Assembly: GCA_030546905.1 (NCBI GenBank)
Contig: JAUOPI010000027.1
Coordinates: 1,677-33,676, forward strand
Reading direction: 5' to 3'
From: Granulosicoccaceae sp. 1_MG-2023
GTDB taxonomy: Bacteria; Pseudomonadota; Gammaproteobacteria; Granulosicoccales; Granulosicoccaceae
Length of the DNA: 32,000 nt
Under the pieces are notes generated by a model, which was not told the origin of the DNA, made no database searches, and saw nothing but the letters and a program-made list of their open reading frames with translations. Made by a program: the position numbers and the translations under genes. Below are positions 6,933-10,535 of this stretch, one piece after another (positions within the stretch are counted from its first letter, which is position 1; the number at the start of each line of letters is the position of its first letter).

Positions 6933-7134
6933 TTTCTGCTCCTTCCCGGGAAAAACAACCGGCACAGGCCGGGCGCACGGCCTTCCGGACCGTCTTTGCA
7001 AGGCTTTGTAGCAAAATGGATACCGCCCCGGCGCAGACAGGCCGGGCGGACAACTCAGGCGGCGGAGACTTCGACGGTGGTGTGGTTGATGGGCTAGTGG
7101 TCTGCCGACCGAAACCGCCATTGCCCTTTACTAG

Positions 7135-7308
7135 CTGGTTTTTTCGGACCGCGTCATCGTTCAGGAGCTTGCCGCATCCCTAAACCTGACAGCGAGCCAT
7201 AAGAAGGATCTTGTGAAGGCGCTGAAAAAAGATCGGGAAAGAGTCAGGGTGGTGATGGAGAAATACCCAAGCTACTTCCGGGAACGGATGAATGAGATCA
7301 TGGGCTAA
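7135..7308 (+). pseudogene. Short ORF or gene remnant whose stop codon lies inside the attC R'' core
   Basis: Below the length cut-off of the track. The frame is open from TAG 7132-7134 to TAA 7306-7308: LVFSDRVIVQELAASLNLTASHKKDLVKALKKDRERVRVVMEKYPSYFRERMNEIMG*. There is no early ATG. Candidate starts are only CTG 7135 or GTG 7213 (AAGAAGGA upstream). Confidence 0.25.
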
Positions 7309-7389
7309 CAATCACATGCACTCGGACAGCAAAAAGCGCCGCTCGTTCCTCGCTCTGCGTTTTGCTGCCGGTGATATAAAGCGTTAAAT
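7303..7389 (+). mobile_element. Integron attC-type recombination site (87 bp)
   Basis: The site is GGCTAAC (7303-7309) ... GTTAAAT (7383-7389). Hand-traced pairing: CAC 7319-21/GTG 7371-73, CGG 7323-25/CCG 7068-70 region (7368-7370), CAGCAAAA 7327-34/TTTTGCTG 7360-67. T7322 and A7326 are unpaired on the left arm. An unpaired spacer lies next to the cores and the central loop is variable. Confidence 0.7.
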
Positions 7390-7701
7390 GCCAGTGATCG
7401 CGAGATCCAGTGCTCCAACAATCTGCTCCCTGAAATGCGATAGGGAGCCAATTGGATTCTTCAGCTGTTTTTCAGGCACTGAAGAAATTTGAGGTGTCAG
7501 CAACAGCAGTTCCTGGTCAGCAAAGGTTATTTCTGGTGTGAGGCCTTGCATGGCTTGGCCGCCAAAAGCCGCGCGCTCAACCAATGGAATGACGATACGA
7601 GTTGCGAGATCTGTCAGAAGAGGGCTTTGAATATCCACTAAGTACGGGTAAATCGTCTTACTGGTTTTGCTCGGGTTTGGGTAAACGTCGAACTGAGCCA
7701 T
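7384..7701 (-). CDS. ccdB: CcdB toxin (gyrase poison family)
   Basis: The track ORF is 7384..7791. ATG 7701 gives MAQFDVYPNPSKTSKTIYPYLVDIQSPLLTDLATRIVIPL...ISSVPEK..GSLSHFREQIVGALDLAITGI, which is colinear with F-plasmid CcdB (QFKVY..LFVDVQS..RMVIPL..ASVP..LSH..GI). Confidence 0.9.
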   Translation of the reverse strand: MAQFDVYPNPSKTSKTIYPYLVDIQSPLLTDLATRIVIPLVERAAFGGQAMQGLTPEITFADQELLLLTPQISSVPEKQLKNPIGSLSHFREQIVGALDLAITGI

Positions 7702-7946
7702 CAAAACTCCCGAAATTCGTCCCCGAAACAGCCGTGTTGTTCGACGAACTCGTTGTAGCTTTTGATTGCTGTCCGGTTTTCCTCTACCCATTGGTCAGCT
7801 TTGCGCTTTGCTAACTCTTCTTTCAATGCCCGCTCAAGGGTCGCAGACAGGTTAATGTTCAGAGCGCGTGTCTTTTTCAGCAAATCGCTGTTAACCGACA
7901 AATTTGTGGCTTTTTTTGGTGCGGCTGTGTTGTATAGATCGGCCAT
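7701..7946 (-). CDS. ccdA: CcdA antitoxin
   Basis: The track ORF is 7701..8015. ATG 7946 is preceded by GGAGGC. The sequence MADLYNTAAPKKATNLSVNSDLLKKTRALNINLSATLERALKEEL..WVEENRTAIKSYNEFVEQHGCFGDEFREF matches the CcdA pattern. Its stop overlaps the ccdB ATG by 1 nt (TGATG). Confidence 0.9.
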   Translation of the reverse strand: MADLYNTAAPKKATNLSVNSDLLKKTRALNINLSATLERALKEELAKRKADQWVEENRTAIKSYNEFVEQHGCFGDEFREF

Positions 7947-7983
7947 TGTAGCCTCCGGTTGCGGTAACACACTTAGCAATAGC

Positions 7984-8007
7984 GTATGCGCATGGTCGTG
8001 CGCATAC
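7984..8007. promoter_or_regulatory. Probable ccdAB operator: perfect 9-bp inverted repeat within the promoter spacer
   Basis: GTATGCGCA (7984-7992), tggtcg, TGCGCATAC (7999-8007). On the minus strand it sits between TTGTAT (-35-like) and TACGCT (-10-like), 38 nt upstream of the ccdA ATG. Confidence 0.5.
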
Positions 8008-8013
8008 AAGTGC

Positions 8014-8083
8014 ATTTAACCAAAGGCTGTTGTCGGACGCGCCTATGCTGCGCTCCGGCACGCCGCAAAGCCAAGCGTTAGAC
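8014..8083 (+). mobile_element. Integron attC-type recombination site (70 bp)
   Basis: The site is ATTTAAC (8014-8020) ... GTTAGAC (8077-8083), a perfect RYYYAAC/GTTRRRY pair. Hand-traced pairing: AAC/GTT, a 4-nt unpaired spacer, then GGCT/AGCC, TTG/CAA, CGG/CCG, CG/CG, GCC/GGC. Single bulged bases G8029, T8033 and A8037 are all on the left arm, and the loop is 13 nt. Confidence 0.75.
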
Positions 8084-8135
8084 GCGCGAACAAGGTCCCT
8101 GGTGTTGACCGCTATGCCGTTGGGAGGATCGTGAC

Positions 8136-8456
8136 TTGCCCAGGGTGTATGAGAGGGCCAGAGTGCTGACCATCAAGGTCGGAGTGTTTGGCTTACCGCT
8201 CGTATACTTCGGCTGGGCATACCTGTTCTGGTCTCCCATCTTTGGATCAGGCGAGTCGGTGTGGTCCTTCCCCAAGATCATCCTGTTCCTTGAAGGGGGA
8301 GCAAGTCCGCAGATTGCAGGGTTGCTTGTTGTGCCTGCAGGGTGTTTGGATACGGACGTCTCCATTCGGTCAACAGCGCATATCTTTATTTCCTGCAAGG
8401 CCGGCTGGGACGATGCGCCCGCGGATGTGCCGAAGTTTGAGGGCCTGCCCGACTAG
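8136..8456 (+). CDS. Hypothetical small membrane protein; N-terminus reminiscent of a CPBP/Abi-family protease, probably a truncated fragment
   Basis: A TTG start lies 7 nt after GGAGGA (8123-8128), directly after attC 2. FGLPLVYFGWAYLFWSPIF...ILFLEGGASPQIAGLLVV resembles the first two TM helices of CPBP proteins. The rest of that family is absent and the ORF ends at 106 aa. Confidence 0.3.
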   Translation: MPRVYERARVLTIKVGVFGLPLVYFGWAYLFWSPIFGSGESVWSFPKIILFLEGGASPQIAGLLVVPAGCLDTDVSIRSTAHIFISCKAGWDDAPADVPKFEGLPD

Positions 8457-8681
8457 ACTGTTGCGGCCAAACCCCGATCCGCACTGAGGCTGTAGCACCA
8501 ATGCCGGGGTAGGGCGCCGGTGTCGATCGGACTATTTCATATGTAATATCGCGGTACCTGCCATTTATGAATCTCCGCGGCTTATTGCCGGCAAGCTTAC
8601 CTGAAAGGCCTACGCTGACGGGAAAGTTGTCAGCGGGGCGGTTGATTTGCGTGCCAGTGTTTGCGGGAGAGGAGTGAATTC

Positions 8682-9173
8682 ATGATGGCTTATATCGCTG
8701 AGATGTGGGCGCTTGCGCTGGAAGGCGAGAAGCAGGGTGTACTGTTTTTCGTGGTGATCTACGTGTTGATTGTGTGTCTTTACTCTCTGGTGCGGCAATT
8801 GTTAATCAGGCGCTGGCCGCTGGCCAAAGGTAAGTTGCTCAGTGCGACGGTGGAGAAGTGGGGCGTGGAGGACATTATCCCGGCGGAGCAGGACTATAAA
8901 GCCGCGGCCTTGTATGAGTATGAGGTGGCCGGGCGGCGGTATCGGGGCAGGCGCGTATCGCCCTGGGTGATAGTTGCGTCGTATAACGCCAGAATGCTGC
9001 TTGAGAAGCAGTTATCCGGGGTCAGGATTCATCCGGACGGCTCGGTTGATGTTTTGTACAAGCCCGGAAAGCCACACAAGAGCTATCTGGTAAAGCCGGG
9101 GCTGTTCGGAATGGCGCTGACCTTCGGGATCGCAGTGATACCCTTGATACTCTATCTGAGGGCGTATGCCTAA
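8682..9173 (+). CDS. DUF3592-family membrane protein
   Basis: The track ORF is 8661..9173. ATG 8682 follows GGAGAGGAG. The layout is TM, then WPLAKGKLLSATVEKWG..AAALYEYEVAGRRYRGRRVS..HPDGSVDVLYKPGKPHKSYLV, then TM. This is the DUF3592 arrangement. Confidence 0.7.
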   Translation: MMAYIAEMWALALEGEKQGVLFFVVIYVLIVCLYSLVRQLLIRRWPLAKGKLLSATVEKWGVEDIIPAEQDYKAAALYEYEVAGRRYRGRRVSPWVIVASYNARMLLEKQLSGVRIHPDGSVDVLYKPGKPHKSYLVKPGLFGMALTFGIAVIPLILYLRAYA

Positions 9174-9268
9174 GCGGCACCATAGGGCTCGCCGGCGTTT
9201 ATCTACTTATTTGTTGCACGTTCTGTAGCTAAGGTCTGTCCATTAATGCCTTTACATCAGTAGCGGGG

Positions 9269-9586
9269 ATGAGCTTACTAGTACAGGACTCGCTGACCTA
9301 CACCTCTGCCCGGACCTGTGACGATGGTACGCGGGAGTTGGCAGCCAACGGCATTCCTGATCAGGAAGTAGGCACGTTCCCGAACCCGGGTAACCCCAAT
9401 GTCATTTCCGAACAGAGTGGTTCTGCAAGCTTTTGCCTGGTGCCTTCTGAGACAGGTACCGCGACCGGATCGGGGCGCATACTGCACATCACCGTGTCGC
9501 GAAAATCGGCGCAGCTGCGCCATGAGTTTGCGTTAACACCGGCGCAGCCGGTCGCTGAGTTATTCCCGGCAACGGACAGCGACTGA
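9269..9586 (+). pseudogene. YHYH-protein-like fragment (N- and C-terminally incomplete)
   Basis: LAANGIPDQEVGTFPNPGNPNVISEQ matches the NGIPxHxxGxFPxxGNPNxIxxQ signature of YHYH proteins. There is no signal peptide (an in-frame TAG lies just upstream), and similarity is lost after about 70 aa. Confidence 0.35.
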
Positions 9587-9599
9587 AGCGGCCGTTTAA

Positions 9600-10535
9600 T
9601 TAAGCGCTTTCCTGCGCGGCGCTGACTTCCACGGTGGCGTGGTCGATGGACCAGTGCTCGCGCAGGCGTTGTTTTACGGCTTGCAGTATGGCGTCGCGGT
9701 CAGAAGCGGGTTTAACACTCACTTCCAACGTTGCCATGGGCCGCTCCTCACTGATCATCCAGACATGCACATGCCGGGCGCTGAGCACGCCGGCGACCTG
9801 ACTTTCCAGGTCCGCCGCAATGCCGTCGCCGTCCACGTGCGGCGGTGCCCCTTCGAGCAGAATATTGGCGCTCTCGCGCACCACCGCATAGGCCGAGCGC
9901 AGGATCAGCAGCGCCACCAAAACCGATAGCAGGGGATCGATCGGGGTCCAGCCGCTCAGCATGATGATGATGGCGGCGATAATCGCGGCCAGTGAGCCGA
10001 GCAGGTCGCCCAACACATGCAGTGCGGCGGCGCGCACATTGAGATTTTCCCCGCCGGCGGCAGACAACACCTTAAAGCTGATGATATTGACCACCAGCCC
10101 GCCGACGGCGACCCAGAACATCAGCCCGCCGGTCACGGGCGCCGGTTCGCTGAGGCGGTGCCAGGCTTCGACCACAATCCAGGCGGCGATCACAAACAGC
10201 GCCAGCCCGTTAACAAAGGCGGCCAGCACCGAGATGCGGTCAAAGCCGTAGGTGCGGCGGGGATCTGCCGGTCGCGCGGCCAGGCCGATGGCAATCCGCG
10301 CCAGCAGCAGTGAGGCGGTGTCGGTGAGCATATGGCCGGCGTCGGCCAGCAAGGCCAGCGAACCGGAGATCAGGCCGCCGGCGATTTCGGCCAGCATAAA
10401 GCCGCCGGTCAGCCAGACGGCAATGCCCAGGGCCCGCCGGCGCTTGGCAAGTTGTTCGGGACTGGCGCCGCGTAGCGGCGAGAGATGGCTGTGACTGTGA
10501 TCGTGTGCGTGGTGATGTGAGGCGTGGCCGGGCAT
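9600..10535 (-). CDS. Cation diffusion facilitator (CzcD/ZitB-type) divalent-metal efflux transporter
   Basis: A His-rich N-terminus (HASHHHAHDHSHSH) is followed by ALGIAVWLTGGFMLAEIAGGLISGSLALLADAGHMLTD and AAALHVLGDLLGS. These are the CDF signature helices. Confidence 0.9.
   Translation of the reverse strand: MPGHASHHHAHDHSHSHLSPLRGASPEQLAKRRRALGIAVWLTGGFMLAEIAGGLISGSLALLADAGHMLTDTASLLLARIAIGLAARPADPRRTYGFDRISVLAAFVNGLALFVIAAWIVVEAWHRLSEPAPVTGGLMFWVAVGGLVVNIISFKVLSAAGGENLNVRAAALHVLGDLLGSLAAIIAAIIIMLSGWTPIDPLLSVLVALLILRSAYAVVRESANILLEGAPPHVDGDGIAADLESQVAGVLSARHVHVWMISEERPMATLEVSVKPASDRDAILQAVKQRLREHWSIDHATVEVSAAQESA

Follow-up and report, generated by a model that had tools for sequence, protein, structure and literature searches.

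A two-site attC cluster around a ccdAB cassette, probably the remnant of a decayed integron array, in Granulosicoccaceae sp. 1_MG-2023

Results

The DNA analysed here, a 32-kb stretch of contig JAUOPI010000027.1 from Granulosicoccaceae sp. 1_MG-2023 (hereafter the window, whose own numbering is used throughout), carries two integron-type attC recombination sites that enclose a single intact gene cassette with a predicted ccdAB toxin-antitoxin (TA) pair. The reading that we favour, at a probability of about 0.88, is that the locus is a set of clustered attC sites with no integrase (CALIN) in the Granulosicoccaceae chromosome, in which one intact ccdAB cassette at 7384-8077 lies between relics and is the remnant of a decayed array. 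The definition of a CALIN calls for two or more attC sites and no integron integrase gene (intI) in the vicinity, and integrase loss is one proposed origin for such clusters (PMC4889954). When the clustering criterion for such elements is applied (attC sites within 4 kb of one another and on the same strand), the locus is a two-site CALIN: both sites are on the + strand, they are 625 bp apart, and the window contains no integrase. The locus lacks the make-up of a complete integron, in which intI, with an adjacent attI and a Pc, lies upstream of the first cassette. An array next to intI is found for the relatives of the second attC site, which are described below, and not for the window locus itself. 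The features on which the argument turns are as follows.

7099-7305, + strand: relic of a small cassette gene, 5'-truncated, with an in-frame TAG at 7132-7134 (tblastn match to the metagenome protein P0241)
7303-7389, top strand +: attC site 1, 87 nt; R'' GGCTAAC at 7303-7309, R' GTTAAAT at 7383-7389
7384-8077, + strand: complete cassette, 694 bp between the two G/TT crossover points, with ccdB, ccdA and attC
7384-7701, - strand: predicted ccdB toxin gene, 105 aa; Pfam PF01845 CcdB, E 1.9e-32, positions 1-101 of 101
7701-7946, - strand: predicted ccdA antitoxin gene, 81 aa; Pfam PF07362 CcdA, E 3.3e-32, positions 1-71 of 71
7984-8007, no strand assigned: perfect 9-bp inverted repeat GTATGCGCA-N6-TGCGCATAC, between ccdA and attC site 2
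8014-8083, top strand +: attC site 2, 70 nt; R'' ATTTAAC at 8014-8020 and R' GTTAGAC at 8077-8083, both perfect
8078-8456, + strand: relic or relics of the next cassette, beginning TTAGAC, with no attC after

Two attC sites on the same strand

Two covariance models were used to locate attC sites in the window. Model R1 was built from 52 sequences of the site 2 family with a hand-set structure and was run with filters off, while model R2 was built from 91 array attC sites beside intI and included no window sequence; site 1 was used in building neither. With both models, sites 1 and 2 are the only significant matches in the window, both on the + strand. Site 2 scores 92.4 bits with R1 and 83.6 bits with R2, and site 1, which is aligned over its full length in each case, scores 26.6 bits (E 8e-6) and 43.0 bits (E 2.5e-9), respectively. 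The next-best R1 matches in the window are the reverse strand of site 2 itself, at 15.1 bits, and a match at 12.9 bits, and R2 gives no more than 17.5 bits on either strand of the remaining sequence, where the cores are absent. A scan of this type had been proposed in an initial annotation, which read the two sites from the letters of the sequence, and it places both of them above background.

Known attC sites provide a scale for these scores. R2 recovers all four attCs of an Escherichia coli class 1 integron (aacA4, 49.0 bits; catB3, 45.5 bits; dfrA1, 45.3 bits; the site 2 family member, 83.0 bits) and all four of a Marinobacter plasmid integron, including a 126-nt qnrVC1 site; the known aacA4, catB3, dfrA1 and qnrVC1 attCs span 34-49 bits. 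In the loci fetched for comparison, R1 detects same-strand arrays beside intI, in which the heterologous attCs score 19-60 bits. For the negative control, 80 loci that carry CzcD relatives (best 59-65% identical), in all 1.42 Mb of unrelated DNA from proteobacteria, gave zero matches at E values up to 10. Strict RYYYAAC...GTTRRRY pairs also occur at 1396, 17524 and 26542; neither R1 nor R2 supports them, and we treated them as chance. Neither model finds a third attC at 8456-8560, following the gene fragment to the right of the cassette, or elsewhere in 8084-9600, and a MAFFT alignment of 8456-8560 is unconvincing as an attC. The Rfam scan of the window returned no family at the gathering threshold and bears on attC identity in neither direction.

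The internal structure of the two sites can be compared with what is established for attC hairpins, in which the top-strand arm with AAC bears two or three extrahelical bases, placed at positions 16, 20 and 23/24, the last of them is a conserved T, G is usual at position 16, a 6-bp stem runs from the first to the last, and the unpaired spacer is usually 5-6 nt (PMC5027507). Inverse cores are present at 7303-7389 and at 8014-8083, with site 1 R' perfect and its R'' matching at six of seven positions, and the crossover points lie between G7383 and T7384 in site 1 and between G8077 and T8078 in site 2. Both sites have top-strand bulges in columns 16, 20 and 24 of the AAC arm, split by 3 + 3 bp so that the stem from first to last is 6 bp. 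These bases are G7318, T7322 and A7326 in site 1, by the covariance-model alignment, and G8029, T8033 and A8037 in site 2; on the bottom strand they read C16, A20 and T24, of which T24 is the conserved base.

Most of this layout had been traced by hand in the initial annotation, which described paired cores, a spacer and an interrupted stem with bulges confined to the left arm. The layout is borne out by the pairing in the family alignment and by the full-length model alignment of site 1, and the five bases that had been named fall on the expected columns, with G7318 added by the model. The accompanying statement, that the two sites share their ends and not their interiors, is correct in part. 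On the right, each site carries the octamer AAGCGTTA at its right end (7379 and 8073), and the 32 kb contain no further copy of it. On the left, the shared bases are TAAC rather than CTAAC, and the interiors have TCGGAC (left arm) and GCCG (right arm) in common. For both sites the - (bottom) strand folds slightly better than the + strand, with values for single-stranded site 1 DNA of -15.9 versus -14.9 kcal/mol, and the isolated strands fold weakly better than shuffled sequences (z -0.02 to -2.3). Taking model scores, controls and alignments together, we regard the sites at 7303-7389 and 8014-8083 as confirmed by sequence comparison to be genuine integron attC sites.

Relatives of site 2 in integron arrays

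Site 2 belongs to a family of closely similar attCs, copies of which were located as follows.

Window, 8014-8083: attC site 2
Metagenome loci L089-L208: 54 unique copies
Locus L209, 5998-6068: one copy
Locus L210, 5584-5653 and 7998-8067: two copies

The metagenome scan, made with CGCAAAGCCARGCGTTA, returned 120 stretches, about 57 of which are full-length relatives of site 2, the others being chance matches. The 54 unique copies, which come from many unrelated metagenomes, marine and other, are about 70 nt long, and the 52 that were aligned have a mean column identity of 89%. Their interior is conserved and the outer three bases of each core are variable, the pattern to be expected if the neighbouring cassette supplies the last six bases. 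In this alignment 93.8% of the cells of the family hairpin are paired, a share that drops to 25-38% on sliding the partners. Column pairs 27-48 and 28-47 show compensatory changes (two to three pairs), and the spacer is 4 nt per arm.

Tblastn with IntI1 detected full-length homologues in eight family loci and fragments in three more, and none in the window, even at E 10. In all 11 of these metagenome loci, the family attC is situated to the cassette side of intI, and its top strand is directed away from that gene. Seven metagenome integrases and the integrase of the Marinobacter plasmid score 396-425 bits on the NCBIfam model TIGR02249 'integron integrase', for which the cut-off is 265 bits.

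The same family is present in plasmid-borne integrons. In the class 1 integron of E. coli pEc98_2, where the cassette order is aac(6')-Ib4 - catB3 - dfrA1 - hypothetical, the last cassette has a family member as its attC, just before qacEdelta1-sul1. In a plasmid of Marinobacter sp. SBY-1, a family site follows both bla cassettes, and an annotated integron integrase is located in the same integron. The SBY-1 plasmid is conjugative. Family members also occur in a Thiolapillus plasmid and in the Marinobacter contig L081, where a second site 2-type copy, 91% identical, is found 3' of a helix-turn-helix gene.

The 694-bp ccdAB cassette

Between the two G/TT points there is nothing except ccdA, ccdB and attC, and the initial annotation was right to describe a unit of about 0.7 kb that holds these two genes alone, opposite to the attC top strand. 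The ccdB stop codon forms the first three bases of the cassette, the ccdA stop overlaps the ccdB start (ATGA), and GGAG is located 5' of the ccdA ATG. The genes are adjacent, with the antitoxin first, translationally coupled, and complete in their domains, and judged by these features they are a CcdA/CcdB type II TA pair. The first bases of the cassette, TTAAAT (7384-7389), are the exact complement of ATTTAA (8014-8019) in the R'' of its own attC, as is expected of a cassette that was formerly a circle with one attC.

From the orientation of the family attCs in arrays with intI, the top strand in the window must be the + strand, and ccdAB is therefore reversed relative to the array. TA cassettes in chromosomal integrons are often oriented against the array. 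The initial annotation had ascribed to the cassette a promoter and an operator of its own; for the latter, the perfect inverted repeat at 7984-8007, which is kept in contigs L081, L085 and L088, is a candidate to which CcdA/CcdB might bind.

CcdB shares 95% identity with a protein from Marinobacter and 80-90% with others from Halomonas, Alkalilimnicola, Aliidiomarina and Nitrincola, and in the related contigs ccdAB is found among other TA pairs and small genes. The stretch common to the window and to Marinobacter contigs L085 and L087 runs from GCG/TTAAAT to AAGCG/TTA, and the flanks differ by context. Since homology breaks at both G/TT points in differing contexts, we take the unit to move as one block. 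The comparison with relatives that the initial annotation had suggested thus finds ccdAB with attC flanks and breaks in homology at exactly these boundaries. The L085 copy of the ccdAB cassette belongs to an array in which five attCs share one strand and other TA pairs are also present. Blastn against the PLSDB plasmids matched the ccdAB cassette through its attC part only.

In four of the related contigs (L081-L084) the site 2 homologue is interrupted by an IS66 transposase fragment. The Marinobacter contigs L081 (9390-9710 and 12341-13183) and L082 (11184-13787) contain an IS66 fragment, a group II intron reverse transcriptase and insertion sequence (IS) fragments, and these pieces show how such arrays break. 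A tyrosine recombinase near ccdAB in L082 (15239-16063) was considered and rejected as an integron integrase, with 122 bits against the cut-off of 265.

Truncated cassettes on both sides

By comparison with homologous cassette genes, the neighbours of the ccdAB cassette are truncated relics on both sides. On the left, tblastn aligns 7099-7305 at 72% identity with the metagenome protein P0241 (98 aa), residues 30-98; nothing corresponds to the first 29 residues, and the TAG at 7132-7134 stands in place of a conserved E. The TAA stop of this relic (7306-7308) falls inside the R'' core of attC site 1, and site 1 belongs to this truncated, nonsense-bearing cassette relic on its left. The corresponding protein family (P0241-P0244) consists of cassette-borne proteins of 60-98 aa with no Pfam match, and locus L213 has a homologue with a related attC after it, in an array that also includes a HicA gene.

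The open reading frame (ORF) on the right, 8136-8456, is chimeric. Its last 60 codons (8274-8453) correspond to the C-terminus of a cassette gene of the GFA family (PF04828), with 61% identity by BLASTP between the ORF and residues 72-133 of the cassette protein of locus L138, which itself matches the Pfam GFA family at E 2e-24. Loci L138, L146 and L099 have a full GFA gene with an attC of the site 2 family after it. In the window relic, the N-terminal part is unrelated, and both the cysteine-rich N-terminal part of GFA and the attC are missing.

The sequence beyond this relic, 8457-9590, is a low-GC stretch that may represent either further eroded cassettes or a separate insertion; up to about 9590, neither an attC nor a match to the fetched loci was found. 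Two ORFs lie within it.

8661-9173: ORF with a DUF3592 match
9269-9586: 105-aa ORF without a family

Absence of an integrase from the window

The initial annotation had noted that no integrase was in view and that Maf and glycosyltransferase genes occupy the left side, where intI would be expected, and both observations hold. The Pfam annotation of all large ORFs in the 32-kb window includes no recombinase, and tblastn of the window with five integron integrases revealed neither intI nor an intI pseudogene, with nothing better than E 0.4. A 16-residue segment at 8187-8234 (FGLPLVYFGWAYLFWS) has a faint likeness to the W-x-Y-L-F-P-S motif of IntI, at E values of 2-4 with three related queries, and was judged to be noise. 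Because the window has no integrase, the cassette is probably immobile here, unless an intI is present elsewhere in the cell.

Discussion

The arrangement of the locus suggests how its parts might act. A ccdA-ccdB operon would be read on the - strand from signals within the cassette. The - strand of each attC site would form a hairpin in which the R box is paired, a spacer of 4 nt stays unpaired and the L box bears three extrahelical bases (C16, A20 and T24), and an integron integrase supplied in trans would cut the bottom-strand AAC between A and C, which corresponds to G/TT on the top strand. Recombination between site 1 and site 2 would then free a 694-bp circle, in which the rebuilt attC would have an R box perfectly complementary over 7 bp (ATTTAAC/GTTAAAT) and the predicted junction would read ...CCAAGCG followed by TTAAATGCC.

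The most likely history of the locus is that a once-larger cassette array, acquired horizontally, lost its integrase and was then eroded by deletion. Horizontal acquisition is suggested by base composition, with a GC content of 0.48-0.58 across approximately 7000-9590 versus 0.60-0.65 outside, and by the 95% identity of CcdB to a Marinobacter protein. During this erosion ccdAB may have been kept intact by its own activity, as loss of the pair would kill the cell through post-segregational killing, an effect that would also shield the adjacent DNA. The bolder form of this idea, that ccdAB is the only intact survivor through addiction and that the locus is in this sense a fossil, in which TA cassettes outlive the integrase and their neighbours, is one we put forward tentatively and at somewhat worse than even odds. 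The same caution applies to a linked suggestion, namely that the site 2 attC type may trace a common environmental cassette source and may mark one prolific source for environmental and clinical integrons alike.

Several points weigh against the account given here. In site 1, R'' has G at position 2, the single mismatch to RYYYAAC and the one departure from the cores as they had been annotated, and one L-box pair is non-standard. In both sites bottom-strand position 16 is C, where G is usual, and the unpaired spacer is 4 nt compared with the usual 5-6 nt (PMC5027507). R1 and R2 are home-built models seeded from site 2-related attCs; they are not fully generic and differ from the IntegronFinder model. 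A consensus scan for a sigma-70 promoter of ccdAB found 0 sites, which leaves the initial annotation's claim of a promoter, as distinct from an operator, without support. The absence of intI applies to the 32 kb of the window, and an intI elsewhere in the genome is possible. Finally, that addiction keeps the cassette intact is a step that we infer.

Among the alternatives, the one that fares best, although we consider it unlikely, is that the cluster was split by rearrangement from a complete integron elsewhere in the genome and is still serviced by the integrase of that integron. Half of the CALINs described in PMC4889954 are in genomes that encode IntI, and both attCs around ccdAB look intact. 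The orientation of the sites is also compatible with such a connection. GC skew is positive along the whole window, 1-32000 (0.02-0.09), and the + strand is therefore probably the leading strand, with the attC bottom strands (on the - strand) on the leading-strand template, as in maintained chromosomal integrons. This is the orientation reported for attC bottom strands in the V. cholerae chromosomal integron, where it is reported to limit cassette excision (PMC13108822). On the other hand, the 32 kb contain no IS or other rearrangement scar, and the erosion of the neighbouring cassettes suggests that there is no ongoing turnover.

We find it distinctly less probable that the cassettes were inserted directly at a non-specific secondary site (GNT/GTT) by an integrase acting in trans, with no full integron ever present at this position. 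Insertion at secondary sites is among the origins that have been published for CALINs (PMC4889954), and it would agree with the ordinary chromosomal genes on the flanks and with the lack of an intI pseudogene nearby. However, the leftmost unit is no whole cassette, since 29 codons are gone and a stop interrupts the remainder, and no TTAGCC cassette start that would match site 1 R'' was found. What follows site 2 is likewise incomplete, a gene fragment without an attC. Insertion of intact circles gives whole cassettes, and later deletions would be needed in any case; the relic neighbours therefore favour a decayed array over a fresh secondary-site insertion. The initial annotation had left the choice between an orphan attC cluster and a rearranged array edge, and the truncation of the flanking cassettes favours the latter, in the form of a decayed or rearranged edge.

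Lastly, it is very improbable that the palindromes are repetitive extragenic palindromes (REP) or bacterial interspersed mosaic elements (BIME), or ccdAB terminators or regulatory hairpins with AAC/GTT ends by chance: both are imperfect palindromes, intergenic and beside gene ends, whose isolated strands fold weakly better than shuffles, but no other copy exists in the window, relatives of site 2 occur in many unrelated organisms, always in cassette arrays and oriented away from intI, the outer core bases vary around a conserved interior as expected for attC, and neither site has the T-run tail of a terminator, the four terminator-like sites of the scan being elsewhere, all of which agrees with the initial preference for attC over REP.

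Relation to known integron systems

As a CALIN, the locus resembles those described previously (PMC4889954) in having two same-strand attCs 625 bp apart, non-resistance cassettes and a gammaproteobacterial host, with no intI within 7.3 kb upstream or 24 kb on the other side. It differs in being of minimum size, with two sites, and in having visible cassette relics that document decay, a feature outside the definition.

TA cassettes with their own promoter are known in chromosomal integrons and are thought to stabilise the array (PMC13108822; Richard et al. 2024). In the text of PMC13108822 that cites its reference 39, ccd cassettes are named among the TA cassettes of Vibrio chromosomal integrons. 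The cassette described here shares with the Vibrio TA cassettes the form of a two-gene TA operon carried as a single cassette with its own attC; unlike them, it stands as the sole intact cassette in a remnant, and there is no large array with an integrase. For the ccd cassettes of Vibrio superintegrons, the source is said to be Guerout et al. 2013 (J Bacteriol 195:2270). The window sites also differ from the Vibrio cholerae repeats (VCRs), in that the host belongs to the Granulosicoccaceae, the attC is of another type, and CcdB is closest to Marinobacter and Halomonas proteins.

In their fine structure, sites 1 and 2 are like VCR2 and attC-oxa2 (Nivina et al. 2016, PMC5027507) with respect to the bulges at 16, 20 and 24, the 6-bp stem and their placement on the AAC arm of the top strand, and they share the bottom-strand T24 and A20 with attC-oxa2. 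They depart from the usual pattern in having C16 instead of G and a spacer of 4 nt instead of 5-6. The last-cassette attC of pEc98_2 and the bla attCs of SBY-1 are members of the same family of about 70 nt, with 84-92% identity to site 2, and differ from the window copy in belonging to complete integrons with forward-oriented genes and other cargo.

CALINs are common and TA cassettes, including ccd cassettes, were already known, and the present locus leaves current understanding unchanged. What is new is the presence of cassette relics on both flanks and the Granulosicoccaceae host. The locus documents that integron cassettes have reached the Granulosicoccaceae, a marine family that has been little studied, by horizontal transfer, and it provides a clear, small case of array decay around a TA cassette that fits the published idea of array stabilisation. 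In addition, the site 2 attC type ties the environmental cassette pools of Marinobacter and its relatives to one cassette of a clinical class 1 integron in E. coli.

Gene neighbourhood

The genes around the cluster were assigned by Pfam.

Left of attC site 1: two GT4 glycosyltransferases, a hexapeptide transferase and a Maf-type (MptE-like) gene
Right of the cassette region: CzcD, PurU, and genes of lipid and coenzyme A metabolism

The window PurU matches a Granulosicoccaceae sp. 1_MG-2023 protein at 100% identity, and its next relative is 77% identical. At 807-2154, two directly consecutive ORFs encode 309 and 138 aa; the first has a weak Peptidase_M78/IrrE-like match (E 7e-5), and the second has no family. 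They lie at the left edge of the cluster of glycosyltransferase and Maf genes and might function as a pair in regulation or defence.

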